Below the pieces are notes generated by a model. That model worked only from the letters and a program-made list of their open reading frames with translations, was not told the DNA's origin and searched no databases. The position numbers and the translations under genes are program-made. Shown here one piece after another: positions 18,901 to 36,913 of a stretch of 64,000 bases of DNA; positions within the stretch are counted from its first letter, which is position 1; each line of letters starts with the position of its first letter. The DNA is from a virus. Taxonomy: Duplodnaviria; Caudoviricetes. The stretch lies in IMG/VR virus record IMGVR_UViG_3300030616_000020, positions 1 to 64,000 of that record; one strand, 5' to 3'.

Positions 18901-21900
18901 TGAATCAAAGCAAGCTCTCCTAGATAAAGAAAGAAAAGAAGGAAAGAGTTATCGTAAGCGTCTTAAAGACCTTAAGGCTGAGTACGACATGTATATGAAG
19001 AAACTCCTGCAACGTAAAGGAGATGGTCGTGCTACGAAGAAAACTATTTCTGAAACTCAGACTCTTATTGATCAAACTGTAGAGTTGATCAATGAAGTTC
19101 AGGATAAGATTGATGCTTCTGTACAAGCTCAGATTAAATTAAAGCAGGATCAGAATTTTTATGTACAGCGTTTAGCTGAAGAGGATGCTAATACTGAGAG
19201 TCTTAACCAAGCTATAAATGCAGTCGAAGATGAGATTCGTGAGAATGAAGAAATCATAGGTGCTTGGCAGAAAGTTGTTAACGAGCTTAAGAACTTGATG
19301 AATAAGCTCCTCAGGATGTTCAATGTTTCTAAGATGTGGACTCCTGATGCTGTTTCAAAGAAACTTACAGAATATCGTCATGCTGTAGAACGTGAGATTC
19401 AGAATGCACTAAAACCACCGGGAGAACGAGTGCAGCTAGGTGCTGCTATTAAAGCTCTAAGAGATAATGAGGATGTTATCAAACGGAGAGTTTCTGCAAA
19501 AAAAGGTGCAATTCAACGTGAGATCAATCGTGGTGTAGAAGCAGAAGGAGAATATTGGGTTGCTCGTGGTAAGATGGAAAGTGCTGAGAATCAGATCACT
19601 TTATTTGAACAAGCTAACGATCAGCTTTTTGAAAAACTCGATTTGCTCGAACAGGAACAAAACGCTCTGGATGAACTATACCAACGAAGGAAGAGAACTG
19701 TAGAAGGTGTTATTAATCATCCTCAGGTAAAAGAAGAAAGTAGAGCTGAGAATGAGATCGAGCAGGTCTATCAGGATAAGAATATTGATCCTCCTTCTGA
19801 AAGTACTACCAACAAAGAAGAGAGCAAGACTCTTTGGGAAAGTGCAAAACGTAAGCTTGAACATGTGTTCTCCGGTCTTACTGGAAAACATACTGATCGA
19901 GAAGGAAATTTAACTCAAGATGTTAATCAAAGAAGGTATTATCGTTGGACAAGCAAGACTGATATTAAAGGTGGAGATTACTATGTTAAGATAATCAAAG
20001 CTTTTGATGAAGATGAAGCTAAGATTATAGAAGCAGGTTATAACTTTAAAGAAGCTCTTGTTGCTGTTGTTGTTGACAAAGACGGTAATTATATAACTGA
20101 ACAAGGAGTCATCAATAAGAATGAAGCTACTCCTAGTTCTATTAGAAATCTTGGTATCTGGACATCTTTTCCACTTCCTACTTACAGTACAAACGAATTT
20201 GAGAAAACATTTCGTAAGAAGCATGAGACTAAAGAAGAAGAGATAGCTTATGAACAGAAAAAACAAAATCTGATTACTGCTCATAAGGCTCTTAGAGAAA
20301 AGATTACAGATCATTTGGAGAATGACAGAGAAGTTATTTTTCAACTTGTGGATAAAGCAGCAGGTATTCCTAACGAAGATTTGCCAACTGAGGAAGGACA
20401 TGATCCGGATCATATTCTAATTAGAGATTCTTTTGGTCACGATAACGTAACTCTACAGGTACAGACACTTCCTTCAATGTCTATAGGAGGAACTGTAATT
20501 ACCACTTCTAAGCTAGGTCATACTTTTGTTAAGGATAACGAAACAGGAAATGTTCTCGAAACACGTTCACGAAGACTGAACGATCAGGAAATAGATGTAG
20601 TTGTAAAACTGTTTCAACTTCTTGCAAAGAATAGTACCATTGATCAAAGTGGTATGATCCATTCAGATAATGCAACTGTTCTTAAAACCTCGAACGGAAC
20701 TGTTATCTACAAAAATATGTTTGAGTATCTGAGTCCTTATCTGTATTGGACCGGAGATAATTTTACCAAAGACAGTAACGGTGAGATTGTAGATGTCAAT
20801 GAGAATCCGAATACTCTCTTCCATTTTCTTAGAAGACATGAGGGAGTTAGTGTAGCAGGTGGTTATCTTCAATTGGGACGCAAAGCATATCAGCTTTTTG
20901 TCAAAGATGGAGACAATGTACTTCTGAATGAAGCACTTGTGAATCAACAGGGAGAGGGAGCATTGGTAGACTTTCTCAGAAGCAAATATATCAATGTAAG
21001 TTCTCCACTACTTATAGCAAATGAAAGCTTTGAAGAAATCGTTGATGTAAATGAAGATGGTACAATTGTAACAAGACCTCACGACAGTTATCAAGAATAT
21101 CTGATGGACAATGTTCTTGGAGTATCTGTACCACCTGTTACTACAGAGACTTTCCGTGATGAAGATGGAAATGAGGTTGAAGAAGAAGTTCCTCAAATGC
21201 TTAACCAGTATGCAATCTATAAAGCTACTGACGATTTTGTATCTGAGGAAACTACTGTTCCACGTAGAGAAATGCCTTCTACTACGTATGATAACTGGAA
21301 AAATTTAAAACCGGGAGATCGTATTAACATTGATGTTGTACAGGAAGGAACTAACAACACTCTTAGATCAGCAGTTCTTGAAATGCAGGATGATACGAGC
21401 TTCATCATTATCGAAGGTGAGATTCACGAAGACATGGTTAACAATATGTCTAGAATTATTAATAGTGAAGCTCCATCAAAACAGTTTGCTATACTCAATA
21501 GTGGTCTTAAGAAAGTAAGTAATGCTCAAGTTGCTATTTCTGATGTAGTTCAACCTACTGTTAAACCTGCTCCTGAAGTTAAGACTGAAGAGACTGCACC
21601 AAAAGAAGGCAGAAAGCCACGTAGATTGAGCAATAAGAAGGGTTCTAACCGTAAACTATACAGGAGTCCCACTGCGGATGAAAGAGGTGTAGAACAGCTA
21701 GAAGAAGCTGAGAAATGGTTTAAAGAACGATTTCCGAATGTTGATTTTGAAACTGTTCGACATCTTATTGATGGTAAACATCATGGACAGTTACGTGATG
21801 CTGCTGTATACATCTATGAAAATGCTGAAGTAGGTACAACTTATCATGAAGCATTTCACGTAGTAACTCAGATGTTCTTGAATCGTGCAGAACGTAGAGC

Positions 21901-24900
21901 ATTATATCGTGAATGGAAAAGAAGAAATCCTGACAAAAGAAATTATACCAATGATCAGATAGAGGAACAGCTTGCAGAAGATTTTAGAGAATATATTCTG
22001 TTCCGTAAAGAGACTTCTAATGTAAGCCCTCGTGGTTTTCAGAAGACTCAAGAAGAACAAGATCGTGAGAATGAGCAGTTTAAGAAAGACCTTGCTGAAT
22101 ATGCCAGAGAAGATATTTCTCCGGAGCGTAAAGCAGAACTTGAAGAGAAGTTAGTTCAGTCTTACTATGCTGAAGGAGAGATGATCACTCATGAGGCTAA
22201 GAAGGCAAAGAGAATGGTCGAAGCTATCAAAGCTCCTCTACAAAGAAGTTTCTTTGAAAGGCTGTACGATTGGATTGTCAATATGATCTATGGAAAGCCT
22301 GAAAGTATCATAGAGATATTTGAAAATATTGAGAACAACAAATATCGTAATCAAACACCTAATCTCAGGCGTGGTAAGAGAGTAAAGCTTAATCGTACTT
22401 ACGAAGGTAAGACTGAAGCATTTGGAAAGATGGTTATGGAAGGAGTGAATTACTTCTTCTTCCAAAAGCTTTTTGCTTCTAAAGAAAGTGTAAGTACCTT
22501 ATTCTCAAAAGAAGATAATTCTGCTCTTGTAAATGACTTGTATGAATATGCGTATGAGGAAATTGAGAAGACTATAGGTGATCTTCAGGCAGTGCAGGAC
22601 GATCCTGAGATAACTGATCAAGAGTATGACAGGCTCGATAATGTAGTTGATCAGCTATGGTTTGTTCTTGATAACTGGAATGAGACAAAGAAACTTCATC
22701 GTAATTTTCTTACTCAATACAGACTTGAATTTGTAAATATCGAAGATACTATAGGTGAGACAAACATTGCTCTCGATAATGATAATCTGATATCAAATGC
22801 AAGTATCAAAATCTCATCTAAGCTTAATGCTTCACGAAATATCAAGCTACTTGTAGGTACACTGGTTGATGTAAATAAAAACTTTGAGGAAAAAGTAAAC
22901 GATCTGGAACTTGTTCAGAATGCTGATTTCGGAAGAACTTTCAATATACTTGTGAACCGTTTTGCAGGATTGAGAAGTGATAGTCAAATGCTGAATGCTA
23001 TTAATAATATTGCAGCTAAAGCTCCTCAGTTATATGCTCTGATTGATCGTCTTGGATTAAATAATGAAGGTGAACATCTGTCTGAGAATCAAATGCTTGA
23101 ACAAATTCAATTCGTTCAGACGTTTGCTAAGACTAAACACACTTATATGTTCGATATCACTGGTATAAACGGTAAGTTTAAGCTGGTGAACTCCAACCGA
23201 TCAAGTATCAATGAGAAAGTTAAAACAGTATGGAAATCTAATGCTGAGAACAAGCGTATATATGAAGATAGGAACGGAGTACGTTACTATAAACCTTCAG
23301 TATTTGAGAAGTTAGGTCCTATTGATACTCCTCAGAAAGCTCTTAAGATGCTTAGTACGATGGGTATCAACTATACTTTTCCTAAAGAGGTAGAGTTAAA
23401 AGATGAGCTTATCAGAAAAGCAAATGGTATCTACACTCAGATCATGTCTAAGAGTGGACAGCCTTATATCTTCGATACTGAAGTTAACGTAAATGCTAAA
23501 GATGATTTAAGTACACTCATTCAATTTGAGGTAGATACAACCGTTGATTATATTGAGAATAGCCATTTAAACATCGAGAATAATCTCGTATATGATGTTG
23601 TATTAAATAGTTATCTCTCTATTGCTATCGACGATATAAGAAACTTTCCTACTCTCGAAGCATTATTTGAAGAGAATCCACATCTTGATCCTAATAACAA
23701 TATCTACACGCAGAATTCATATCTTCTGCAACCGGGAGGACCACTTTATAAAAAGAATGGTGAGTTAAGAGATGATCCACTATTCCTTGAAATTCATGAA
23801 GGTAGTAAAGAAGAAGACTCTGAAATTTCTTCTGAGTTTGAAGACCTTGGAGAACCGGATCAACTTCGTGTACATATAAATCGTGGACTTGAAGGTTCTT
23901 ATCCACTTCTTCGTCCTGCTGATAATTCTATTGAAAGATATCTCAATTTCGGTAAGCCGTTATTTTCAACAGGTCAAATATCCAGAAATGTTCATGTTCA
24001 TCAGATGCTTAACTATCTGAGAGATGAATTAAATCGTGGTTCCAAAACTCTCAGTGATATTGCTAAGGGAGACAATCTTTGGAAATATCATAAAGAGAAT
24101 GCTACCGATGGTATTGTCATTCAAATAGTTTCTCAAAATCCTGTGATCAAGGAAGCAATTGATCAGTTCTTTAAGGACAGTGAAGCTACAGTCGAAGGAT
24201 TCTTTAACGATGATATACTTGTAGAAGAACTTAAAACTCAGATCAATACATATTTTACTGACAGGACAGGTTCAAATCAGGAAGGTTTCATCAAGATGCT
24301 TCTTGATTATGGTATTATTGAACTGCTTGAAGATGGTACTTATTATAATAATGGTCTCAACATAAAAGGAAATCCTCAAATACTCAGTGAAGATGTTCTC
24401 AATAGTGAAATTAAGAATTATCTTATCAATGATACCATATCTAATATTGAGCAAACTAAATTGATCTTCGGTGATCCTGTAGGTTATAAGAATGTTGCAG
24501 ATCAGTTTAAGCGTCATTCAGGTGTAGTTGGTACTAAAAAGATTTCTGCTGTCTACGATCAGGTTAATCGTTGGATTGACAAAAAACTCAAGCGTACAGA
24601 TCGTCAGGGTGGACTTTATAAGAATGGTAAACCAATTATCAGAACTGCTGTATTTGCGGATATTATAGTTCAATCAAGGTATCATGCTGAATATGCAAAA
24701 GCTATTGGAGACAAGGCTGATCCATATCTTGAGATAGAAGAAGGTGATGGTCAAGGTTATATCTCAATTGACGAATGGAGAGAAATGCTATTCAGAGCAG
24801 GAGAATGGAGCTTTGGAGTAGGTTCCCTCGAAGATTTATATCAATGGGAGATTCAAAAAGAACAAGGAGAACAACAACCTAAAGACCCTGTTACCGGAAG

Positions 24901-27900
24901 AGTTATAGACAAAAATAAACTTCCTGTAGCTACTCCATTGAAACCACAATACATGGGTCCTCTTGCAGAGCAAGGGTTCCAGATGGGTATGTATAAACTT
25001 TCTCTGTTCCCATTACTTCCAAGTGTTACAAAACAGTTCAGTCAGCTTGAGGCTCTCCGAACAAGAATGAAGGGGAAAGAAGGAGAGAACGATGGTATCG
25101 GTATAGCTGTATTCCAAACTGCAAACAAAGTAGGAACCAAACTCAATCAGCACGGTGAAACTCAACCTCTTTATGAGGTTAAAACGACAGATGAGAAGCA
25201 GATAGCAGAGTTTGCTTATCAAAACTATGCTCCTATGGTTACTCAGGATACCTACTATAAATATTGGGGTATTCAACAGGAAAAAGGTTCTAAGAGTAAA
25301 CGAAAAGTTGTCTTCGGTACTCAGATGGCAAAGCAGATTCTCAATGGATTATATGAGAATGGTAGGTTAAAAGAAGGTCTTGATCCTATTCTTGCAGAAC
25401 GTGTAGATGAATATCTGAAACTCAATAGAGAACGTATTGAAATAGGTCTTGCACAACTTGTTAACAGTCTTGGTCTTGTAGAGAAGAACGGAAAGTACCA
25501 CGTTAAGAGCATGGAATCTCTTATTGAGAAGATTCGTAAAGAAGCTGTTGAACGTGAGATGCCTGATAATATCATTGATGCTATTGATAATCTTGAGATT
25601 GGAAGTGGTCTTGATACTTTGATAAACAGGGAGAAAATCGAAAACGTTCTCTTTTCTATTGCTGATGCTATGAGTACTTCTCAGAAGCGTTCAGGTTCTC
25701 CTAAGGTACAGGTATCAAATGCTCTTGGAACATCTGTAAGAACTGTGATTGATACTGAAACAGGACAGGTTTTTCGATCTTCTGATCTTGAATTTTATCA
25801 TGATCAAGACGGGAATATTGTTCAGGCAGAAGTTTATCTTCCTGCTTTTCTGAAAGGGAAAATTACAGATGATAACCTGCGTAATTTAATTGGTTTTCGC
25901 ATTCCTACTCAGGGATTGAACTCAATTGAATCTATTAGAGTTAAAGGATTCTTACCAGTAGAAGCAGGTGATAGTGTTATAGTTCCTTCCGAGATTATAG
26001 CAAAGACAGGATCAGACTTTGATGATGACAAACTCTATCTCTACTATCCTAACGTATTCTATAATAAAGAAGGTAATCCTGTTTATATTGAGCTTAAAGA
26101 CAATACTGAGCTGGAAGAAGTTTACAAGGAATATTCTGAAGCTTATGAAGCAAGGTTTACTCAAAGGGTTGTAGGTAATATAGCTTTTGACAGTCTTCCT
26201 GAGAATCTTGCAAGATTTGTCAAAACCGAGATTTCAGAAATTCTTTCCAATGAGAACGTTGGTATAAGAGATGTAATCGAGGGAATAAATGATAGAATAG
26301 TTGAAGCTGAAAATATTTTACGTGAGAAGAATCTAGAATCTCCGTTGATTGAGACTTACAAAAAGATAAGAGCCAATCTCATATCTCTTTCTAATGAGAT
26401 CGAAACCGGAACATCAAGTGAGTTCGATCCTATGACCAGAGGAGAATTTCGTAAGAGGGCTATCGAGAATCGCATCAGTGAGATTCAAAAAGACATTATT
26501 CTTCATCCTGACAACTTTGCTCAACTTATCAATCCTGTATCTGCAAATGATCTTGAAGCTGAGGCAGATAAGATATTACTTCTTAGAGGGGAAGCCAAAC
26601 GTGATAAGGATGGAAAGATAGTCAAGAAACAACCTACGATGAATAACATCGTGGAGCGTGAATATCTGATGGATGTTGCTCGTCGATTTATCGGAGGTAA
26701 GCAAGCTATTGGTATCACTGCAATCAGTTCTACATTTGACATTCTCTCAAAAATGTCAAACGTATCTATTGTACCTGAGATTACAGTATATAGAAATAAG
26801 AAGTCAGTTCCTATAAAGACCAATATAAATCTTCCTCATAATAAGAATGAAGAAGGTAATGTTACGCTTTCCAGAATACAAGATGCGAATGATGAAGGAA
26901 ATATACCGGAAAGACTTTCTCAATGGATAAATGCAGCCGTGGATGCTGCTACCAATCCTTTCATGTTCGATCTTAACTCTGGTCCTCAAACACTCAATAC
27001 TGTTCTGTATTTGACTATGGCAGGAGTTCCTCTGGACTATCTTACCAGATTCATGACTCAGCCTATTATTGTCGAATACATCAAGAATAGGCAGAAATGG
27101 GAGTCTCAGATGATGGAAGGTAACATTGATCCTCAAACAGGTAGGGCTAAGAAAAAATTCAGAGATTGGATTGTTGCTAACACCAAAGCTAAGTATGTCG
27201 ATCAATTAAAAACCGGTACTGTTTCAGAAAAAGAGTTAACACTTCTTGATCTTGAGAGAGGTATCAAAGCTGGTGCTACTGGTGCAATGAGTAATGTTCA
27301 TGCTCGAACTCAGATTCAGGTACTTGATGATTTTCTCAGGTATATGGATACTGCGACAAAACTTCGTGATGCTACTGGTGCTATAAACTATGATACCAGA
27401 GCAGCAGGTAAAAACACGAGTGAACTTCTTTATAGGATTGAAAACACTGAGAGAGTAAGACAAGAAGGTAATTTGAATAACTTCTCTGGTATCTTGGATG
27501 ATGGGTTCATATCTCCCTATTATGATTCTGTCAAAAGTCTCAGAAATGTGTTAGACCCATTGTTTGTTACTCTTAATGATGAAAGTGTAACACGACAATT
27601 TGATAAACTTTTCAGAGTTCTTTTTGATCAAAGGAATACTCTTCCTAATGATAAGAAAATCAGAGTAGTAGATAAATTTAAGCAAAGCTTCATTACATAT
27701 CTTCTTATAAGCAGACCTTATAGTGTCTCTGACAGACTCAATAAAAAGGACGGTATGAAGGTTGCTATGAATGCCAGAGTCTCTAGGTTACTTAAAGATA
27801 CTAATGAATCAAAGTCTGTCGCTACCAGATTAAAGGAGATGCAGAACGATCCTAAATATGCTGATATGTCCTTGTTAGCATATCTTGAACCTATTCTTGA

Positions 27901-30900
27901 TAAGTCTGGTAAATCGGAAGCTACGAATCATGTAGCAACTGTAGCTAAGAAACTTGATACAATTGAAAGTAATCGTCTGACAAGTGAATGGAGAGAACTG
28001 ATTGAAGCAGATAAACCTTTTGCATACGATTTGATACTTGCTACAGCGTTACAATATGGTATTCTGAATACTCCTTTCACTTTTACAAATCTCATTCCCT
28101 TTGAGATTTATGGACAGGTAATGAACTCTATTCTTGCAGAAGAAAAGACAAAAACTGTAAAAGAAAAGAATAATCTGTATGATGATTTTTACAATCGTTT
28201 CTTTCTGAACAACTTCGACGATAATTCGATTGTTCCAATACGAAGGAAGGGAACTAATTTTCATCTAGCATATCCATATTTCAAGATACCTAACAGGAAG
28301 GAAGAATTTCGTGAAGCATCTCCTCAAGAAATATCTGCTCTTAGAGAAAAAGGAGTAGCTATTTATGAAGAAAAACCTAAAGTTATTCGTACTGAAGATA
28401 ATAGAAGAATGAACCTTACAGGTATTCGTAAGAATTACCAAGGTAAGATGCTTCTTCTCAACTATGATATAAACACACCTTTAGTAGCTGATGTTAGCAG
28501 GAGTGAAGATAGTAAGCAGTTTAATCAGTTGTCCAGAGAAAGTGACCAAGCTCCTGATGAAGCTATCAATGAGAAGATCAAAGGCTGGATGGATAGAATG
28601 GGTATCAGTTATCAGAACGTAGAAGAGATTACTGATAGAGAAGGAAATCCCATTGATGCTATTGCAAAAGCAGATATGCTTCATGCTACTATTCAAGTTG
28701 TCGAAGGTAAGGCTGACATCACCACCTTATCAGAAGAAGCTGCTCACTTTCTAGTAGAGTTACTTGGAGACGACAATCCTATCCTTAAAGGCATGATGAA
28801 TGCTGTAGAAGGTACTGAAGTTCACAAGGAAGTTGTAGCTGAATACGGAGAGATTTATAATAATGACGAGACTAAGCTGAAGAAGGAAGCTGTAGGTAAA
28901 ATGATTGCTAAAGCTATCATCAATAAAGAGAAGGTAGCTGGTATGAGCAGGTTCCAAAGATGGTGGGATTCAGCATGGAGATGGATAAAGAAACACCTCT
29001 TAAGAGTTAGTTCTGATGAAGTAGCAGAAGAACTCTCACCTTATGCTGAAGCTGCTAATATTATTCTTGGAAATGTAACAGAAGGTCTGTCTCCTATAGA
29101 AAGTCTTAATCCTGATATCTTCTATCAAGTAACCGAAGAGGAGAAAGCTACTGCTGCTGCAATTGAAAAGTCTCTCAGAGAATCAAGGATAGAGAAAGAT
29201 AAAGAGCAGGGTGGATACAGAACACCTGAAGGAAAAGCTGTAAAGAATAGAGTTAGTGATTTTGTTAAAAGATTTTACAATCAGATATTTAGAGGTAGAA
29301 GCGCAGAGGAAGAAGCGAAACCTCGCAACATTCTTTTAAAACAGAAAGGAACCATTATTCATAAATATCTTGAAGTTATAGGTGAATCTGTATTTCAAGG
29401 TAAAACTCCTACTAAAGCTGAGGTTCAGAAAAGAGTGATTGAAGACTTGCAGGATAGAGATGACATTGCTAACGAAGAGTTCTTCGATAAAGATAAAACG
29501 TTCTTCATGCTCTCAGGAAATCAGTTTGGAGAACTTCGTGATGGATTGATTAAAGTAGTTGCTGGAATCAAGGCTAAACAGGAAAGAATTGATCCAAATG
29601 AAGAGGTCAAATTTTTTCCGGAACTTCTTATATACGATAAGTATGGTGATATAGGAGGTACTATTGACCTTGCAGTTTTGTATTCTAACGGTTCAGTAGG
29701 AATTTATGATTATAAGACCATCAATTTTGATGATACTAAGACCTTAGCTGGATTTAAAGAAGATGCTTACAATATTCAGATAAGTGAGTATAAGCGTATT
29801 CTTCAGGATCGTTATGGAATCAAGAATATTGGAGAAACTCGTGTTATTCCTATTGACGTTCAGACAAATTTTGCTGCAACAGGTCTTACTACCATTTTGA
29901 TGGGTACTACCGGAATAGGAACAAAAAGTAAAGATCGTCCGTATCTTGAACAAATACCTGTAGCAAGAGAACTTACTGAAGATAAGGAACTTAATGAGTC
30001 TCTTAAGAAAATGTTTGTTCTCTACGATAACTTAAGAGTAAAACTTTCAAATGATTATCAGAATGACAAGCTTGCATTAAGAGTAGCAAGGTTACGTGAA
30101 GCAATTACAGGTCTTCAGCTTCGTGGAGATGTATCATTTATCATTGGTGAGATTCAGACTATTTATGCTGATTTTGAGAAAAGAGAGAATCTTCCTGCTG
30201 ATCATGAATTTGGTTTGAATGATGATTTCTTAAGAGAGCTTAGTGAATATGTCCATGCATATAAGCATTTTGGAGTCAATGCTATGGCTACAGCTAGGAA
30301 GACTCAAGATCAGAAAAGTATTCACACTCTTCAGAGAGTTGCTCACATGCTCGATCAGATGCAGAATCGGATTGACCATAAATATATTGAGAATGCTAAC
30401 AGATATTCAGACTATGATGTAGCAGGTAAAGCACCGGCAGAAGGATTTTTAGGAAAGTTGTTTAAGCAACTATCTCAGTTTAAGAGACCTACCTTTAAGA
30501 AACTTTCTGAAATGGTACACGAAGTTGGATACAAAGTCCGTCGTGATGTAAATGCTGCAATTGAAGAGATTGATGAAAAGAATGAGGCTCTCAAAACATG
30601 GGGGAAAGCCCGTGGTATAGGACTTCAGCAGGTCTTTGATAAATACCTCATTAATCCTAAGAATGGAAATCTTAAGAGTAAGTACAAAAGTGAACACTTT
30701 GAAGAAAAAGATAAAGCAATTTCCCAGAGGGGTTCTGAAGGTACAAAATGGTTCCTTGAAAATACTCAAGTTGAACGTAGAGAAGATGGTAAACTGTATT
30801 ACACCGGAGAACGTCTGAAGCTTTATGAAGAACAACGTAAAGCACACTTTGACTATCTTGATCGTACAATGTTAGGAGAAGAAAATGCTAAAGCGAAAGA

Positions 30901-33094
30901 AGACCAAAAGAGTAAATGGGATCGTAAGTTCAATATTACTACTTATCCTAACGCTCTTTTCTACAAACATAATCGTTATATCAGACCTCAAGAAAAACCT
31001 TCAAACTACAGTGCTGACTATAATTTCATGCTACAGCCTGAAAACAAGGCGTTACTTGATTATTACAATATGTATATAGAGTTTAATGATAAGTTTGGAA
31101 GACTTACAGAAAAGCATATTGACTATAATTTTGTAGCTGAAATTCATCAAGACTTTATTGAGAGAATTTCAAATACAGGTAGTAATGGAGTCAAGGGTCT
31201 TTGGGATAGTGTTATACGTTCTGTTGAACTCAGAGAGTTTGATCTTTCGAGAGGAAAAATGGACCTTTCTACAGGTAAACCTGTACCTGAGATACCATTA
31301 TTTTATACAGATAAGCTTTCAGGAAACGTATCAAGAAGTAAACGTAAGCAGATCGAAGATCAAGTTGCAGAAGAATTTACCAGAGGTAGTGCAGCATATC
31401 AGAATGAAGTTGAACGTCAGATTAAGAAAGCTGAATATGAATCTGGAACCAAATCTAAGAGTCGTGATCTTACAAGAAGTTTGATTCTTTTTGCTGAAGC
31501 TGCTTATAGTCATCATCATCTGAGTGTAACTGAGTCAAGCGCACTTGCATTGATGGAGATTATGAAGTCTCAAGGACAGGAAACTGAACTTGTTGATGCT
31601 GCTGGTAAAGCAGTACTTAATAATTTTACTCGTAGAGCTGCTAAAATGCTTGGAGTTCCGTTAAGTGAGATAGATGCATTGGAGAAGTTCATCAATCTAT
31701 ACTGGTATGGTCAAAGAACTCAAGGAGAAGATATATCATTTACTGTCGGAGATAAGCAATATTCAGCTACTAAGATGTATCAGTCAATATTGAGATTTAC
31801 CTCTGCTGGTGCGCTTGGTATGAAGCCTATTCTTGCAGCAGGTAACTTTATTGGTATCAAATCTAACTCCTACATGACAGGTCGTGAAGGAAAACAATAT
31901 AAGACTGAAGATATTCATAAGGCTCACGGTATGTTCCTTAGAAAAGACCCTCTGTTTGCAGGTGCTATAAATTATTTTGAGCCTTACACTCACGATCTCA
32001 CTTTCCGTAAAGCTAATGATCGTTCGGTATCAAAGTTTGTGCAGACCTTCACTTTTGAGAATCTTTTCATAATGCACAGACTTGGTGATGAACATATTGA
32101 CAGGAACGTTACCGTTGCTATGATGCACCGATGGGGAATCAATAAAGACGGAAAGGTTACTCGTTTAGATAAACTGACTGAAGAAGATACTGACAAACGT
32201 TCATTGATAGAAAGGTCTTCTATAAAAGACGACAAATTTGAGATTGATGGTCTAAACGAACAGCAGTATATTCGATTCAGAAGAATGATTCAAGCTGCTG
32301 CTACGGGAATCAAAGGTAATATGTCTCAAGAAGACTTGAACCTCATTAGAACTAGTTTAATGGGTCAGGCATTTATGCAGTTCCGTAACTGGATGCCCGG
32401 ATTGATTACCAAGCGTTTCAAGAACTTACAATACGATGATCTTTGGGATGATTATGATGTAGGTCGATTTAGGGTGTTTTGGGGAGAAATCACCGCAAAA
32501 GGACTTAAACCGAAGCTTGGTGCATTCACTAGACTACTCGGTGAAGTAACTATGATCTATGGATACGAGAAGAGTGGAATTAACAAGGATGTGACTCAAA
32601 GGTTCTATGACAAATATGTAGTGGCTAATCCTCAAACAGATTTAACCCTAGAAGAGTTTGCACAACTTCGCTTGGATAAACTAAAAGGAATGGCAAGAGA
32701 GCTTCAAATTTATATTGGTATGATGCTCATGGTTGCAGGTGGAAAAGCTTTTATTCCGGAAAGAGATGAAGAAGCTCTTACAAAAGCTACGAGACTTCTC
32801 GCTCAGAATACTTACAGGGTTGCTCAAAGAGGATTCCTTGAAATATCATTCTTCTTTGATCCTAACTCAGTTACAACTATCTTGAAGTCTCCGCTTCCTT
32901 CACTCAGACTGTTTACCAACTTGTATAAGATGGTAGGTAATACCTTCGATGAATCCTTTGATGTTGTATTTGGAGATGAAGTATTTGATAGAACTCCACG
33001 TCTATACTACTTCAGTAAGATTGTTCCTATCATGTCTTCCTACTATGACTTTGCAGATATTTGGGAGACTTACAATACATCCAGAGGCTATTGA
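15989..33094 (+). CDS. Giant virion-packaged DNA-dependent RNA polymerase polyprotein (crAss-type double-psi-barrel RNAP) with zincin and PD-(D/E)xK domains
   Basis: DGQGYIS, RIPTQGLNS, KTGSDFDDDKLY (DxDxD at ~26015-26032), INAAVDAA; HEAFH zincin (~21845); GTIDL...IYDYKT nuclease (~29660). Confidence 0.9.
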   Translation: MPIIPIYNQEQGGIDPATGLTPTSRTRRKPVIPTNLVMPVPEGQESTALGYGASEYEKYVPGGSVFINEGLQDARAHGQATLEKWGRGITKFAGKTGTAVLGGTVGAIVGIPAAIADGSFNSMYDNTFQGWMDQLNEGMDKHLANYYTKEEQEAGFLESLGSANFWANDVLGGLSFTAGAVLSEMVWSATGAGIAGAPARLARAGRYMKNIDKGVDAIKQIKNVSRVTKVGDVGRVARQMYTGAGYEAGVEARHHKKELMDKLMEEWRANNPGKEPSTEDIIRMNDMATTSANGVFAANGFIVGMSNMIALPRIFGPGINSQIKGFSRISKQLEDVGDAWKVAFTPAYKDASTLAKIASASYVTLKNPFVEGVWEEGMQGVANNTMLDYTTKKYNPNASNSVANLAESFGEGLAETYGGKEGWKEIGIGMIIGSIGSPNLRAFKRDRETGRIIKQADQPGWTGGIPGEIQERRKRREEAETRATAANNATKDILFDYTEQYVKDNPEAVAASRKATEHLIRQAYLNEEMDKAIAEENTHEAKNVESDMIHSYIMSRIDAGYGYALKDEFSKMVEDMSDEEFAQVFEYESLPESEVAKRKADTLEKFNERVEQTQKIVNLVDNVYRADLTVPENRDIRESLIYAGGTIIDVEAREQQLANEISEATENEVTYDREQRGEQYKETFRKEVMDAIKDRPDAEKNEVKKKINDLEKLQRRRELFLEQYNHLFTAKGQKEYADILNGTREKQDQAYYDEVGKYFEGTVTIVDGNTGKQYKKWDKSDGTSIIEEIDPENPDQTLKDTQEVVNVKSREFIERFVLIEPAKPGERTLDEDESKRLIKRLNEFKDPDELADFINNEIKPLNLANIDLVKREAAKMWKKLTDKKMDTDDAVPVRYVDKKYIHKDSKKTVIVTKDNEKEDTYYIHDVVNGKKSKGRQITTNLANLNENYIFKGAWTDYTNRLDRIENLENIIESKQALLDKERKEGKSYRKRLKDLKAEYDMYMKKLLQRKGDGRATKKTISETQTLIDQTVELINEVQDKIDASVQAQIKLKQDQNFYVQRLAEEDANTESLNQAINAVEDEIRENEEIIGAWQKVVNELKNLMNKLLRMFNVSKMWTPDAVSKKLTEYRHAVEREIQNALKPPGERVQLGAAIKALRDNEDVIKRRVSAKKGAIQREINRGVEAEGEYWVARGKMESAENQITLFEQANDQLFEKLDLLEQEQNALDELYQRRKRTVEGVINHPQVKEESRAENEIEQVYQDKNIDPPSESTTNKEESKTLWESAKRKLEHVFSGLTGKHTDREGNLTQDVNQRRYYRWTSKTDIKGGDYYVKIIKAFDEDEAKIIEAGYNFKEALVAVVVDKDGNYITEQGVINKNEATPSSIRNLGIWTSFPLPTYSTNEFEKTFRKKHETKEEEIAYEQKKQNLITAHKALREKITDHLENDREVIFQLVDKAAGIPNEDLPTEEGHDPDHILIRDSFGHDNVTLQVQTLPSMSIGGTVITTSKLGHTFVKDNETGNVLETRSRRLNDQEIDVVVKLFQLLAKNSTIDQSGMIHSDNATVLKTSNGTVIYKNMFEYLSPYLYWTGDNFTKDSNGEIVDVNENPNTLFHFLRRHEGVSVAGGYLQLGRKAYQLFVKDGDNVLLNEALVNQQGEGALVDFLRSKYINVSSPLLIANESFEEIVDVNEDGTIVTRPHDSYQEYLMDNVLGVSVPPVTTETFRDEDGNEVEEEVPQMLNQYAIYKATDDFVSEETTVPRREMPSTTYDNWKNLKPGDRINIDVVQEGTNNTLRSAVLEMQDDTSFIIIEGEIHEDMVNNMSRIINSEAPSKQFAILNSGLKKVSNAQVAISDVVQPTVKPAPEVKTEETAPKEGRKPRRLSNKKGSNRKLYRSPTADERGVEQLEEAEKWFKERFPNVDFETVRHLIDGKHHGQLRDAAVYIYENAEVGTTYHEAFHVVTQMFLNRAERRALYREWKRRNPDKRNYTNDQIEEQLAEDFREYILFRKETSNVSPRGFQKTQEEQDRENEQFKKDLAEYAREDISPERKAELEEKLVQSYYAEGEMITHEAKKAKRMVEAIKAPLQRSFFERLYDWIVNMIYGKPESIIEIFENIENNKYRNQTPNLRRGKRVKLNRTYEGKTEAFGKMVMEGVNYFFFQKLFASKESVSTLFSKEDNSALVNDLYEYAYEEIEKTIGDLQAVQDDPEITDQEYDRLDNVVDQLWFVLDNWNETKKLHRNFLTQYRLEFVNIEDTIGETNIALDNDNLISNASIKISSKLNASRNIKLLVGTLVDVNKNFEEKVNDLELVQNADFGRTFNILVNRFAGLRSDSQMLNAINNIAAKAPQLYALIDRLGLNNEGEHLSENQMLEQIQFVQTFAKTKHTYMFDITGINGKFKLVNSNRSSINEKVKTVWKSNAENKRIYEDRNGVRYYKPSVFEKLGPIDTPQKALKMLSTMGINYTFPKEVELKDELIRKANGIYTQIMSKSGQPYIFDTEVNVNAKDDLSTLIQFEVDTTVDYIENSHLNIENNLVYDVVLNSYLSIAIDDIRNFPTLEALFEENPHLDPNNNIYTQNSYLLQPGGPLYKKNGELRDDPLFLEIHEGSKEEDSEISSEFEDLGEPDQLRVHINRGLEGSYPLLRPADNSIERYLNFGKPLFSTGQISRNVHVHQMLNYLRDELNRGSKTLSDIAKGDNLWKYHKENATDGIVIQIVSQNPVIKEAIDQFFKDSEATVEGFFNDDILVEELKTQINTYFTDRTGSNQEGFIKMLLDYGIIELLEDGTYYNNGLNIKGNPQILSEDVLNSEIKNYLINDTISNIEQTKLIFGDPVGYKNVADQFKRHSGVVGTKKISAVYDQVNRWIDKKLKRTDRQGGLYKNGKPIIRTAVFADIIVQSRYHAEYAKAIGDKADPYLEIEEGDGQGYISIDEWREMLFRAGEWSFGVGSLEDLYQWEIQKEQGEQQPKDPVTGRVIDKNKLPVATPLKPQYMGPLAEQGFQMGMYKLSLFPLLPSVTKQFSQLEALRTRMKGKEGENDGIGIAVFQTANKVGTKLNQHGETQPLYEVKTTDEKQIAEFAYQNYAPMVTQDTYYKYWGIQQEKGSKSKRKVVFGTQMAKQILNGLYENGRLKEGLDPILAERVDEYLKLNRERIEIGLAQLVNSLGLVEKNGKYHVKSMESLIEKIRKEAVEREMPDNIIDAIDNLEIGSGLDTLINREKIENVLFSIADAMSTSQKRSGSPKVQVSNALGTSVRTVIDTETGQVFRSSDLEFYHDQDGNIVQAEVYLPAFLKGKITDDNLRNLIGFRIPTQGLNSIESIRVKGFLPVEAGDSVIVPSEIIAKTGSDFDDDKLYLYYPNVFYNKEGNPVYIELKDNTELEEVYKEYSEAYEARFTQRVVGNIAFDSLPENLARFVKTEISEILSNENVGIRDVIEGINDRIVEAENILREKNLESPLIETYKKIRANLISLSNEIETGTSSEFDPMTRGEFRKRAIENRISEIQKDIILHPDNFAQLINPVSANDLEAEADKILLLRGEAKRDKDGKIVKKQPTMNNIVEREYLMDVARRFIGGKQAIGITAISSTFDILSKMSNVSIVPEITVYRNKKSVPIKTNINLPHNKNEEGNVTLSRIQDANDEGNIPERLSQWINAAVDAATNPFMFDLNSGPQTLNTVLYLTMAGVPLDYLTRFMTQPIIVEYIKNRQKWESQMMEGNIDPQTGRAKKKFRDWIVANTKAKYVDQLKTGTVSEKELTLLDLERGIKAGATGAMSNVHARTQIQVLDDFLRYMDTATKLRDATGAINYDTRAAGKNTSELLYRIENTERVRQEGNLNNFSGILDDGFISPYYDSVKSLRNVLDPLFVTLNDESVTRQFDKLFRVLFDQRNTLPNDKKIRVVDKFKQSFITYLLISRPYSVSDRLNKKDGMKVAMNARVSRLLKDTNESKSVATRLKEMQNDPKYADMSLLAYLEPILDKSGKSEATNHVATVAKKLDTIESNRLTSEWRELIEADKPFAYDLILATALQYGILNTPFTFTNLIPFEIYGQVMNSILAEEKTKTVKEKNNLYDDFYNRFFLNNFDDNSIVPIRRKGTNFHLAYPYFKIPNRKEEFREASPQEISALREKGVAIYEEKPKVIRTEDNRRMNLTGIRKNYQGKMLLLNYDINTPLVADVSRSEDSKQFNQLSRESDQAPDEAINEKIKGWMDRMGISYQNVEEITDREGNPIDAIAKADMLHATIQVVEGKADITTLSEEAAHFLVELLGDDNPILKGMMNAVEGTEVHKEVVAEYGEIYNNDETKLKKEAVGKMIAKAIINKEKVAGMSRFQRWWDSAWRWIKKHLLRVSSDEVAEELSPYAEAANIILGNVTEGLSPIESLNPDIFYQVTEEEKATAAAIEKSLRESRIEKDKEQGGYRTPEGKAVKNRVSDFVKRFYNQIFRGRSAEEEAKPRNILLKQKGTIIHKYLEVIGESVFQGKTPTKAEVQKRVIEDLQDRDDIANEEFFDKDKTFFMLSGNQFGELRDGLIKVVAGIKAKQERIDPNEEVKFFPELLIYDKYGDIGGTIDLAVLYSNGSVGIYDYKTINFDDTKTLAGFKEDAYNIQISEYKRILQDRYGIKNIGETRVIPIDVQTNFAATGLTTILMGTTGIGTKSKDRPYLEQIPVARELTEDKELNESLKKMFVLYDNLRVKLSNDYQNDKLALRVARLREAITGLQLRGDVSFIIGEIQTIYADFEKRENLPADHEFGLNDDFLRELSEYVHAYKHFGVNAMATARKTQDQKSIHTLQRVAHMLDQMQNRIDHKYIENANRYSDYDVAGKAPAEGFLGKLFKQLSQFKRPTFKKLSEMVHEVGYKVRRDVNAAIEEIDEKNEALKTWGKARGIGLQQVFDKYLINPKNGNLKSKYKSEHFEEKDKAISQRGSEGTKWFLENTQVERREDGKLYYTGERLKLYEEQRKAHFDYLDRTMLGEENAKAKEDQKSKWDRKFNITTYPNALFYKHNRYIRPQEKPSNYSADYNFMLQPENKALLDYYNMYIEFNDKFGRLTEKHIDYNFVAEIHQDFIERISNTGSNGVKGLWDSVIRSVELREFDLSRGKMDLSTGKPVPEIPLFYTDKLSGNVSRSKRKQIEDQVAEEFTRGSAAYQNEVERQIKKAEYESGTKSKSRDLTRSLILFAEAAYSHHHLSVTESSALALMEIMKSQGQETELVDAAGKAVLNNFTRRAAKMLGVPLSEIDALEKFINLYWYGQRTQGEDISFTVGDKQYSATKMYQSILRFTSAGALGMKPILAAGNFIGIKSNSYMTGREGKQYKTEDIHKAHGMFLRKDPLFAGAINYFEPYTHDLTFRKANDRSVSKFVQTFTFENLFIMHRLGDEHIDRNVTVAMMHRWGINKDGKVTRLDKLTEEDTDKRSLIERSSIKDDKFEIDGLNEQQYIRFRRMIQAAATGIKGNMSQEDLNLIRTSLMGQAFMQFRNWMPGLITKRFKNLQYDDLWDDYDVGRFRVFWGEITAKGLKPKLGAFTRLLGEVTMIYGYEKSGINKDVTQRFYDKYVVANPQTDLTLEEFAQLRLDKLKGMARELQIYIGMMLMVAGGKAFIPERDEEALTKATRLLAQNTYRVAQRGFLEISFFFDPNSVTTILKSPLPSLRLFTNLYKMVGNTFDESFDVVFGDEVFDRTPRLYYFSKIVPIMSSYYDFADIWETYNTSRGY

Positions 33095-35318: not shown

Positions 35319-36272
35319 TTAAAGCTGTGTTTCGTTGTACAACATTCTGAGAATGTCAACATCTACATTGTTAACTTGCACAGGAGGCTCAAAAACACGC
35401 ATGTTTCGGTCATTTCGGGAATTTAACCAACCTGACCATCGTCCACCTCTCATAGCTTTGTAAGATTCGACCTTATCTCTAGGAATATCTTTCTTCCCAA
35501 AGAGCATTTGTTGTACATAATTTGTCTTGCCTATCATAGGACGATAGACACTCTGCTGAATTTTCCTAAGAAGAGGAAAACCGTCTAGGACATAAAGTTG
35601 CCAGCCAGAAAGCAACATGGAATACGATGGGTAAAGTATTTTACTAATCGTCTGTCTATATTTTGGCAGGTCTTGAAGTCTCTCTCCGTCAGGCCACGGG
35701 ACCCAATCTTCCTGATCAACTTCTTTACCATAGTTTCCGATGGGATTTAGTATTGCGTATACAGGAAGATAGATAAAAACGGCAGAGATGATTCCAAACC
35801 AGTGGTATAGGAATTGGTAGAACTTCTTTCCTTGAATAGCTTTACTCCACCAATGGAGTCCGAAAGTTCTACGGGCCATTTTACTGATAATATATCCGGT
35901 GTTATCAGTAATCTCTTTAATCTTAGCCATACTTGATTCATTCCCTGTACGCATATGGTTTAGCTTCAGGGTGAGCAGAGTAGTAGTGTAATGATCTCTA
36001 CTCATAGGATGATCTTCAGGAGGCAGTATAGGATGTCTTTGACCTACATATTTCCCACTAGAGTCAAAGTACCACATAGAAGCACTTGATGTAACAAGTT
36101 TAGGATCGTTGTAAACAAAGTACATTCTCATCATTCCACCAAGAGAATCTCCCGGTTTATGATTCCAATCAAGACGAGCCATCCCATACTCGTCAAGATG
36201 ATGATATGTGTCAGGAGGCAACGCCTCTCTACTGTATGGGCCTATCGGGAATAGTGTCATTCTTTTCAACAA
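35319..36272 (-). CDS. Hypothetical protein with hydrophobic segment
   Basis: 317-aa ORF. Confidence 0.6.
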   Translation of the reverse strand: MLKRMTLFPIGPYSREALPPDTYHHLDEYGMARLDWNHKPGDSLGGMMRMYFVYNDPKLVTSSASMWYFDSSGKYVGQRHPILPPEDHPMSRDHYTTTLLTLKLNHMRTGNESSMAKIKEITDNTGYIISKMARRTFGLHWWSKAIQGKKFYQFLYHWFGIISAVFIYLPVYAILNPIGNYGKEVDQEDWVPWPDGERLQDLPKYRQTISKILYPSYSMLLSGWQLYVLDGFPLLRKIQQSVYRPMIGKTNYVQQMLFGKKDIPRDKVESYKAMRGGRWSGWLNSRNDRNMRVFEPPVQVNNVDVDILRMLYNETQL

Positions 36273-36420
36273 GCTCTTTAACTTGCTGCTCCTGTTTTAA
36301 TTGTTTCTTTGCATCATGATCCCTAACAGCAGTAACAATCCAAACGATGAGTATGGTAGCAACTGCTATAATTGCGATTATACCCATAAGGTATCCTACC
36401 CAAGCTTTTCCTTTTTTCAT
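36229..36420 (-). CDS. Small single-TM protein
   Basis: 63 aa with one TM helix, overlaps its neighbours. Confidence 0.55.
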   Translation of the reverse strand: MKKGKAWVGYLMGIIAIIAVATILIVWIVTAVRDHDAKKQLKQEQQVKELVEKNDTIPDRPIQ

Positions 36421-36755
36421 TCAGATAAAAATTTAATCCATGCGTAAGGTTTTCTTTTATCAAGATATGTAGGCTTACGCTCACCAAAATTAGCCTCTCT
36501 TTCAAAAGAAAGGTTATTGTATGATTGTTTGCCGTACTTAAAGAGTTTGATGATCCATTCTATAAGATACCATAGATAGAATGGAAGAAGGAGCATTTCC
36601 ATCTGTTGCTTCCAATGAATCTTTTCGTGGTTAATAATAACCTTGTGGTTGATATACTCTTCCTTTATGTAGATTCCAAAAGGAGCAAGGCAGATTGCTG
36701 TAGCCCAATTAAGGGTAAGCAACTTTACGAACCAGTTCATTTTTTTGATCCTCAT
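36417..36755 (-). CDS. Small zincin-like (HExxH) membrane-associated protein
   Basis: INHEKIHWKQQ..LSFEREA motif. Confidence 0.65.
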   Translation of the reverse strand: MRIKKMNWFVKLLTLNWATAICLAPFGIYIKEEYINHKVIINHEKIHWKQQMEMLLLPFYLWYLIEWIIKLFKYGKQSYNNLSFEREANFGERKPTYLDKRKPYAWIKFLSE

Positions 36756-36775
36756 ATCGTAAAGGTATTAAAAAA

Positions 36776-36902
36776 TAGGGAGAAAACGGGAACGCTGTCA
36801 TATACGTGAACACAGGAATTGAACCTGTAACCCATTGATTAGAAATCAATTGCTCTACCAGTTGAGCTAATTTACGAAGTAAGCGTTATCCTAGCTACCC
36901 TA
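36776..36902 (-). ncRNA. Y-RNA-like element 1: conserved stem enclosing a complete tRNA cloverleaf
   Basis: TAGGG/CCCTA ends; GTAGCTA-GGATAACGC-TTACTTCG at the 5' side pairs with ACAGCGTTCCCGTTTTCTCCC at the 3' side. Confidence 0.75.
36804..36876 (-). tRNA. tRNA-Arg(TCT)-like cloverleaf embedded in element 1, no encoded CCA
   Basis: CGTAAAT-TA-GCTC-AACTGGTA-GAGC-A-ATTGA-TTTCTAA-TCAAT-GGGTT-ACAGG-TTCAATT-CCTGT-GTTCACG; one acceptor mismatch. Confidence 0.75.
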
Positions 36903-36913
36903 ATGTCTTAAAA

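Follow-up and report, generated by a model that had tools for sequence, protein, structure and literature searches.

A complete, unpermuted tRNA-Arg(UCU) on a Y-RNA-like stem beside a phage Ro60 gene

YrlA-type Y RNAs (RF02553), which are known from Salmonella, mycobacteria and mycobacteriophages, are encoded beside a Ro60/Rsr gene and on the same strand, with several units at a locus, and consist of a terminal stem and, on it, a tRNA-like module that has a T arm and a D arm; in the model presented in PMC4201824 this module is permuted (V, T, acceptor-like hairpin, D), and the ends of the RNA lie at the position of the anticodon stem. Here we describe an array of four RNA units, Y1 to Y4, that follows a Ro60 (TROVE) gene in a 64,000-nucleotide stretch of phage DNA, hereafter the window, which is the first 64 kb of the 98,692-bp virus record IMGVR_UViG_3300030616_000020 (Duplodnaviria; Caudoviricetes), rated complete by CheckV. 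The array resembles YrlA loci in its place and strand, in its several units and in its terminal stem with a tRNA-like module, and unit Y3 has the YrlA order of arms. In contrast, unit Y4 carries a complete tRNA-Arg(UCU), not permuted, in which anticodon arm, variable loop and an acceptor of 7 positions are all present, and the scaffold joins it at the acceptor end. The 5' strand of Y4 also differs, in that it reads TAGCTA(GG) and then TTACTTCG instead of GNCGAAN0-1G, the motif published for the 5' side of Y RNAs (PMC4201824).

A preliminary description of this DNA, made from the sequence alone, had held that the topology of Y4 differs from that of YrlA. This stands as far as the order of the arms is concerned, while the orientation has a partial precedent in Deinococcus radiodurans Yrn1, which is modelled in PMC4201824 in the opposite orientation to YrlA, with the Rsr-binding stem on the acceptor side and a stem-loop in the anticodon position between the D-like and T-like parts. 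Nevertheless, the Yrn1 model as given there lacks a full D arm, a variable arm and a separate acceptor stem, and its ‘anticodon’ loop is of 6 nt; Y4, unlike Yrn1, scores as a true tRNA. The YrlA of Mycobacterium smegmatis, which has an acceptor-like stem of 7 bp, is a substrate for RNase P and for CCA addition in vivo, and Rsr retains both halves, which provides a precedent for the handling of a Y RNA by tRNA enzymes (PMC4201824, in the portion drawn on here). There, however, the acceptor-like stem is a closed hairpin in a permuted module, whereas cleavage of Y4 at both ends would free a whole tRNA.

Among phages, the Ro60 of Thermus phage phiLo binds phage Y-like RNAs and host PNPase (PMC12135203). 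The combination of a phage Ro60 with phage Y-like RNAs (Yrl1 and Yrl2) beside its gene is that seen here, but the phiLo RNAs are stem-bulge-stem structures with a CGAA motif, for which the portion of that source used here describes no tRNA cargo. In the felixounavirus Bas63, the Ro60-like gp130 lies upstream of a tRNA block, and some of the annotated tRNA genes there have been speculated to be Y RNAs (PMC11482910), a speculation that the cited portion presents without a structure. In the Bas63 relative Escherichia phage VpaE1 (L070; KM657822.1, 23573-30632), inspected by eye, tRNA-Arg(UCU) is free-standing and has an encoded CCA. A 471-aa hypothetical open reading frame (ORF) lies directly upstream of the VpaE1 tRNA block, and YrlA-like units (T arm, hairpin, D arm) are found between the tRNAs on a different repeated stem, AGAAGACCG...CGGTCTGGT. 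YrlA-type Y RNAs, tRNA mimicry and phage Ro60 are therefore known; what is new here is the complete, unpermuted tRNA on a Y-type stem. No description of such an RNA was found in the portions of the literature consulted, although the supplementary list of Chen et al. 2014 (PMC4201824), which covers 22 phages, might include some.

A tRNA-Arg(UCU) on a two-tier stem

ARAGORN calls one tRNA in the window, a tRNA-Arg with anticodon tct at 36876-36804 on the minus strand, and in a second run this was the only tRNA in the entire 98,692-bp record. The Rfam tRNA model (RF00005) scores 60.4 bits, as compared with a gathering score of 29, with model positions 1-71 covered in full. The intact, unpermuted 72-nt cloverleaf with anticodon TCT reported in the preliminary description is thereby borne out; the elements follow in the order acceptor, D, anticodon, V, T, acceptor, and a discriminator U completes the body. 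The anticodon loop, TTTCTAA, supplies the C35 and the U/G36 that arginine identity requires, and the acceptor stem has six standard pairs out of seven, with a mismatch at A4.C69.

At both ends the tRNA is continuous with a flanking stem, as had been proposed. The first CG of the tRNA (36876-36875) forms the last two bases of the octamer TTACTTCG, while no CCA is encoded 3' of the discriminator U; the strand instead continues through an 8-nt A-rich linker into GCGTT and then CCCTA. GCGTT (36795-36791) pairs with AACGC (36887-36883) to give an inner helix, to which the GG of the same 5' strand can add pairs with CC at 36789-36788 across a bulge. CCCTA (36780-36776) pairs with TAGGG (36902-36898) to give an outer stem, which is followed by TTTTTT. 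The span 36776-36902, claimed beforehand for the element, coincides exactly with the ends of this outer stem, and RNAfold returns the inner and outer helices around an intact cloverleaf in both the minimum-energy and the centroid fold.

Y4 lies 855-981 nt downstream of the end of the TROVE gene (37757), on the same strand. The 551-aa product of that gene matches Pfam TROVE (E 7.6e-15) and PHROG 850, ‘RNA-binding protein’ (E 3.6e-35), and its sequence matches the Thermus phage phiLo Ro60 structures 9L5Y/9KOP (E 4e-12). AGA, which had been noted as a common arginine codon in this genome, is in fact the commonest, accounting for 617 of the 1344 arginine codons (46%) in 60 long ORFs. The source stretch was found wholly or partly in six DNA sequencing runs, and the three runs that cover at least half of it are marine-sediment metagenomes; no RNA run was listed as containing it. 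When four runs were compared at the tRNA unit, X3 was identical and the others matched only the generic tRNA body or small parts.

Conservation of the scaffold and its kinship with bacterial Y RNAs

The motif GTAGCTA-N9-TTACTTCG, with up to two mismatches allowed, occurs four times in the 98,692-bp record, each time on the minus strand and within 36875-37714; over the same record neither the motif on the forward strand nor a reversed control pattern gave a match. The four copies all lie on the TROVE strand, in the 1-kb gap that separates the TROVE gene from the next ORF, and mark a scaffold of constant order. Its 5' half consists of the outer stem, a hexamer T(A/G)G-Y-N-A, a 9-nt inner-helix strand (the N9 block) and the junction TTACTTCG, after which comes the cargo. 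Its 3' half consists of the inner-helix partner, a loop ending in TTTCT, the outer-stem partner and a U-run.

In order to follow the scaffold beyond the window, TROVE relatives were gathered from 26 viral, 79 metagenome and 27 genome loci (L-numbers denote the fetched stretches). The octamer TTACTTCG was counted over 106 sources with a total of 615 kb, namely the window stretch and the viral and metagenome loci (105, some contigs being in both collections), and was found 229 times on the TROVE strand as compared with 58 times on the opposite strand. A two-tier closing stem with a score of at least 12 was present in 57 of 82 distinct full-motif instances in TROVE loci, whereas the controls reached this score in 8 of 82 cases when the downstream sequence was reversed and in 30 of 410 when it was shuffled. 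Cognate halves formed 14.5 pairs on average, as against 5.9 in 984 non-cognate combinations, a comparison that is biased in favour of the former because the units had been pre-selected for closing.

The helices themselves are diverse: in 32 units, 28 different N9 blocks were counted. Pairing at ten helix positions was tabulated with a purpose-written script for the 15 units that bear tRNAs (in a MAFFT alignment of ten units the 3' strands had come out of register). At most of these positions three to five types of standard pair were found, and at the others two. The hexamer, octamer and TTTCT-type loop are kept, and the helices, though free to vary, remain paired, a combination that, at the level of sequence, is typical of a protein-binding scaffold. 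The flanking stem, whose lack of conservation in relatives the preliminary description had named as one of two findings that together would tell against it, is thus conserved there. The units also resemble Y RNAs in the broad sense, since a conserved stem, interrupted by an internal loop and supported by covariation, is formed by their two ends.

The scaffold is linked to Ro60 genes even when the pattern is taken as the starting point. In such a scan, 12 of the 25 strongly closing matches lay in TROVE-bearing stretches and 4 more in records with TROVE elsewhere, as compared with 10 of 167 weakly closing matches in TROVE-bearing stretches. In viral contigs, GTAGCTA-N9-TTACTTCG was found in 39 stretches, with a TROVE match only in L031, and TAGTAA-N9-TTACTTCG in at least 120 stretches, 167 of 192 motif instances being closed weakly; exact-pattern matches in viral contigs are mostly chance. 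Two strongly closing matches in TROVE-less complete records, L195 and L182, look like coding sequence. A search of 50,697 public phage records with 36400-39500 as query returned no close relative; only the tRNA body was matched (167 records, at most 63 nt, 80-90% identity).

Bacterial loci provide the connection to described Y RNAs. By record title, 20 of the 27 genome loci (L275-L301) are Bacteroidota and 5 are Clostridia, and many of the Bacteroidota and Clostridia Ro60 loci contain arrays with the TTACTTCG junction and the two-tier stem. The 5' loop hexamer of the bacterial units is TG(C/T)CGT or (C/T)ATTG(C/T); TG(C/T)CGT(AG) takes the place of the phage hexamer, opposite a loop of the G-C/T-TTGT type, and Bacteroidota units read TG(C/T)CGTAG. 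Their cargo is mostly a permuted module (T, acceptor-like hairpin, D), and eight of the units match Rfam YrlA with E-values of 2e-8 to 9e-4 and 34-50 bits, below the gathering score of 69. The sharing of junction and two-tier stem with units that match YrlA indicates, as judged from sequence comparison, that the scaffold in the phage is the YrlA-type stem of Bacteroidota in a diverged form. This kinship, together with TAnnTTTG-like boxes, points to a Bacteroidota host for the phage. A possible unpermuted tRNA-like cargo was seen in two of the bacterial loci, L294 (a Paraflavitalea chromosome) and L300.

The opposite strand was also considered as the source of a Y RNA. The reverse complement of TTACTTCGAC is GTCGAAG, which fits GNCGAAG, one of the two published Ro60 motifs, GNCGAAG and GGUCCGA (PMC4201824, in the portion drawn on here). 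An antisense RNA was rejected, because the minus strand is the one that carries T loops, tRNA, U-runs and TROVE gene alike, and because in an antisense RNA the motif would fall on the 3' side. The reverse complement of the junction lies on the plus strand at 37691-37700 and 37044-37053 (GTCGAAG; Y1 and Y3) and at 37335-37345 (GTCCGAAG; Y2), and the likeness of the antisense strand to GNCGAAG and GGUCCGA is probably a by-product of a palindromic TCGA core.

Mounted tRNA bodies: decoders or mimics

The tRNA of Y4 belongs to a family of tRNA bodies mounted on this scaffold. ARAGORN found 13 tRNAs, 9 of them distinct, that begin between -8 and +3 of the base after the motif end. These motif-start tRNAs comprise Arg(UCU) in the window and L072; Ile(GAU) in L005 and L007; a ‘Tyr’(GUA) with a short variable loop in L005; Glu(UUC) in L010; Gln(UUG) in L016; and Asn(GUU) and a ‘His’(AUG) in L085. 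A structure parse over all gathered loci gave 14 mounted unpermuted bodies; the parse row L010-4981 is of the Y2 type and is extra to the 14, and inspection by eye added L176 and a cut-off unit of L073. A 7-position acceptor stem is present in 10 of the 14 (Arg, Ile, Glu, Gln, Asn and odd anticodons), while in the remaining four (L005 GUA, L007 GAU, L010 GCA and L015 UUU) only a two-pair stub, CG/CG, lies between the scaffold and the T stem. In these four a small hairpin often follows the stub, and canonical 7-nt anticodon loops are kept. Bodies without an acceptor stem are, to judge from their sequences, not chargeable, so that at least these would be mimics.

The full-length bodies also depart from ordinary tRNAs. 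Six of the 10 have exactly one C/A mismatch in the acceptor (L005, L010, L072, L188, L207 and the window), which is at 4:69 in four (window, L072, L010 and L188), and 3 of the 10 have an anticodon that starts with A or reads a stop codon (AUC, AGG and UCA). Among all mounted bodies, the anticodons AUG, AUC, AGG and UCA are not used by normal bacterial tRNAs, and to these is added the ‘Tyr’ with a short variable arm. In L072, which comes from a 99.8-kb contig and has 71% TROVE identity to the window, tRNA-Arg(UCU) occupies the same place, and its acceptor, anticodon, T, inner and outer helices differ from those of the window, with compensating changes. The closest relatives, L005 and L007 (TROVE identity 78-81%), have Ile- and Tyr-like bodies there and no tRNA-Arg. 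TROVE identity to the window among phages with mounted bodies ranges from ~81% down to ~26%, where a match was found.

Charging by arginyl-tRNA synthetase (ArgRS) bears directly on the status of the Arg bodies. According to the portion of PMC9976931 drawn on here, Escherichia coli ArgRS has A20 as its main determinant, and in bacteria at large this base is a major identity element. All fetched DNA yielded 34 distinct ARAGORN tRNA-Arg sequences, 32 unmounted and 2 mounted, in which the base after G18G19 is A in 29, unclear in one and T in four; the sequences with T comprise both mounted Arg(UCU) tRNAs and a pair of odd 83-nt ‘GCG’ calls. A20 is thus present in 29 of 32 unmounted tRNA-Arg and in all 13 unmounted phage tRNA-Arg(UCU), while the mounted tRNAs of the window and L072 have U20, and the window tRNA lacks this main determinant of bacterial tRNA-Arg. 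Similarly, the acceptor has 7/7 pairs in 32/32 unmounted tRNA-Arg, as compared with 6/7 in both mounted ones. The absence of A20 from both mounted Arg(UCU) tRNAs and its presence in 13/13 free ones favours a mimic or decoy over an ordinary decoder. Taken with the 6/7 acceptor stem and the relatives that have no acceptor or an odd anticodon, U20 leans towards a non-standard tRNA, without being decisive.

We estimate a probability of about 0.5 that the 127-nt Y4 is an RNA of the Y-RNA family that has a complete, unpermuted tRNA as its effector, with a role as a mimic, tether or decoy. By analogy with known Y RNAs, the shared scaffold would be the part bound by Ro60 and the module on top of it the effector, which in Y4 would be the tRNA-Arg(UCU) stacked through its acceptor stem on the scaffold across an asymmetric loop. 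Phage Ro60 would hold the whole of Y4, or a form nicked by RNase P with its pieces still paired, for which M. smegmatis YrlA is the precedent (PMC4201824, portion cited above). The RNA so held would expose an L-shaped tRNA, complete with a real anticodon loop, to a tRNA-recognising factor of the host or phage. We infer that the presented tRNA acts as a tether or decoy and is not charged normally, that is, that it would not be an ordinary ArgRS substrate for translation.

Several observations weigh against this reading. Rfam YrlA (RF02553) has no match in 36000-38500 at E <= 10, nor does any other Rfam family apart from tRNA reach significance there even at that threshold, and the published motif GNCGAAN0-1G is absent from the sense strand, where TAGCTAGG and TTACTTCG are found instead. 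The A20 argument rests on n=2 mounted Arg tRNAs and on an identity rule established for bacteria and E. coli, which may not be that of the host. Of the 32 unmounted tRNA-Arg, 4 have U73 as well, and this base counts among the bacterial Arg determinants (PMC9976931, in the portion cited). The remaining counter-evidence is shared with the idea that Y4 is a caged or ordinary pre-tRNA, from which RNase P, a 3' nuclease and CCA addition free a working tRNA-Arg(UCU) that serves AGA-rich genes, while the leftover leader-trailer duplex may stay on Ro60. In favour of the pre-tRNA, the tRNA score is high (60.4 bits), with canonical tertiary positions; the acceptor is maintained at 7 positions between the window and L072 by compensating changes; the tRNA is the only one that the phage has, and AGA makes up 46% of its Arg codons; the body shares ~85% identity with tRNA-Arg(UCU) genes of the ordinary kind in other phages; and the RNase P cut and CCA of M. 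smegmatis YrlA imply that such modules are accessible to tRNA enzymes (PMC4201824, as above). A pre-tRNA of this kind is accordingly possible, but we consider it the less probable account, because it is at odds with U20 where 13/13 unmounted phage tRNA-Arg(UCU) have A20, with an A.C mismatch in an acceptor that is fully paired in 32/32 unmounted tRNA-Arg, with sister units on the same scaffold that are acceptor-less or have unnatural anticodons, and with the replacement of tRNA-Arg by Ile- and Tyr-like bodies in L005 and L007.

It is unlikely that the stem has nothing to do with Ro60 and is a generic terminator and/or double-strand nuclease cassette punctuating a polycistronic small-RNA array, in which case proximity to the Ro60 gene would say nothing about binding. 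Every unit does end in a stem and a U-run, and the GNCGAA motif is missing from the sense strand. Moreover, Y3 ends ~9 nt before Y4, which leaves no room for a Y4 promoter and makes processing necessary, so that Y4 is probably cut from a longer transcript. A mere terminator, however, would not be expected to keep its loop and junction sequences while its helices vary, which is typical of a protein-binding site; nor does it account for a scaffold that tracks TROVE (12/25 plus 4 more of the strong closers, 10/167 of the weak ones) or for bacterial units with the same junction that match Rfam YrlA. That an ordinary tRNA gene lies by chance beside a Y-like repeat, its flanking pairing fortuitous, is scarcely credible. 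The fold energy of Y4 as a single sequence improves on that of shuffled sequences only modestly (z = -1.9), and the case for the stem therefore rests on the comparison with relatives. In those relatives the juxtaposition recurs with different helices, in at least 9 distinct ARAGORN cases and 14 parsed bodies, and the closing stem is found in 57/82 instances, as against 8/82 reversed and 30/410 shuffled controls.

If Y4 is indeed an RNA of the Y-RNA family with a tRNA effector, a single locus combines four kinds of cargo on one scaffold, namely a plain loop, two mimics, one permuted and the other end-swapped, and a complete tRNA. Its relatives supply acceptor-less intermediates, giving a natural series that links true tRNAs to Y-RNA mimics and that bears on the role and origin of the tRNA-like halves of bacterial Y RNAs. 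Some of the ‘tRNA genes’ annotated beside phage Ro60 genes may not be decoders. A wider proposal, which we regard as speculative and rather unlikely, is that in phages of Bacteroidota-like hosts Ro60 serves as a display platform. On its constant Ro60-binding stem, tRNA bodies that are complete or acceptor-less, each specific in its anticodon, would be interchangeable, and they would bait or divert host factors that target tRNAs, for example anticodon nucleases, or would form a nuclease-protected, releasable reserve, the mounted tRNA being matched phage by phage to the weapons of the host.

The Ro60 gene, the other units of the array and their surroundings

The positions of the Ro60 gene, the four units and the parts of Y4 are collected in Table 1.

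Table 1. Features of the Ro60 gene and RNA array, in window coordinates
Feature	Position	Strand	Description
TROVE/Ro60 (Rsr-like) gene	37757..39412	-	551 aa; directly upstream of the RNA array, same strand
Unit Y1	37646..37724	-	Scaffold with a 17-nt plain loop, then U-run; motif with 1 mismatch
Unit Y2	37306..37402	-	tRNA-like RNA; ends form an acceptor-like stem GGGGGAAT/ATTCCCCC (sequence read and fold)
Unit Y3	36912..37075	-	Scaffold with permuted YrlA-like cargo (T arm, acceptor-like hairpin, D arm, extra hairpin)
Unit Y4	36776..36902	-	Scaffold with whole tRNA-Arg(UCU)
Y4 outer stem, 5' strand	36898..36902	-	TAGGG; partner 36780-36776
Y4 5' internal-loop hexamer	36892..36897	-	TAGCTA; T(A/G)G-Y-N-A kept in 15/15 tabulated units
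Y4 inner helix, 5' strand (N9 block)	36883..36891	-	AACGC pairs with 36795-36791
Junction octamer	36875..36882	-	TTACTTCG; final CG = tRNA positions 1-2
tRNA-Arg(UCU) body	36804..36876	-	7-position acceptor with A4.C69, U20, canonical D, anticodon and T arms, U73
A-rich 3' linker	36796..36803	-	Between discriminator and inner helix; no CCA
Y4 3' half	36776..36795	-	GCGTT, pyrimidine-rich internal loop ending in TTTCT, CCCTA
U-run after outer stem	36770..36775	-	Intrinsic-terminator-like; likewise after Y1 and Y3

Y1 is closed by stems of 7 and 11 pairs (RNAfold z = -2.8). In Y2 the scaffold inner helix, closed by a TAGCTA-containing loop, occupies the place of the anticodon arm, while the ends form an acceptor-like stem of 8 pairs together with a T-like arm, and a -10-like TATAAT lies a few bases before the first G. 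Y2 is in effect a circular permutation of a YrlA-like unit, and units of its type are conserved in L005, L007, L073, L074 and L096. Y3 gives a weak Rfam tRNA match (36991-36920, 16.8 bits).

The intervals between the units hold further elements. Between Y1 and Y2 lies a small ORF of 74 aa, starting from TTG (37650-37426, minus strand), for which family searches returned no match; L005 and L007 have no ORF at this place, and in one contig of run X5 a stretch of 379 bases in this region is replaced by 154 other letters. Between Y2 and Y3 (~37260-37090, minus strand) are two long hairpins without scaffold, both of which recur in L005 and L007 and neither of which has an Rfam match. The first has a 14-pair stem (TAGCAGCACTGGTC...) around GGGTTGAATTCCATGG, and the second is closed by AAGGGACA/TGTCCCTT and has a terminator-like site at its end. 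A repeat, GTTCTTTAAAAT, is found 12-25 nt upstream of Y2, Y3 and the small ORF (~37640, 37425 and 37085, minus strand), and L005, L007 and L072 have it too; this repeat may serve as a phage promoter or a processing element. In front of Y1, in the window as well as in L005 and L007, the sequence TATATTTG is by eye similar to TAnnTTTG, the consensus of the Bacteroidota -7 promoter box.

No RNA-repair genes were found among the neighbouring ORFs, whose families include HNH, adenylosuccinate synthetase, UDG, DUF932 and a PHROG ‘protease’. An HNH endonuclease ORF (39461-40171, minus strand) overlaps the 3' part of an adenylosuccinate-synthetase-like ORF (40020-41192, minus strand) immediately upstream of the Ro60 gene. 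Elsewhere in the window, a single ORF of 5,701 aa extends over 15989-33094 on the plus strand.

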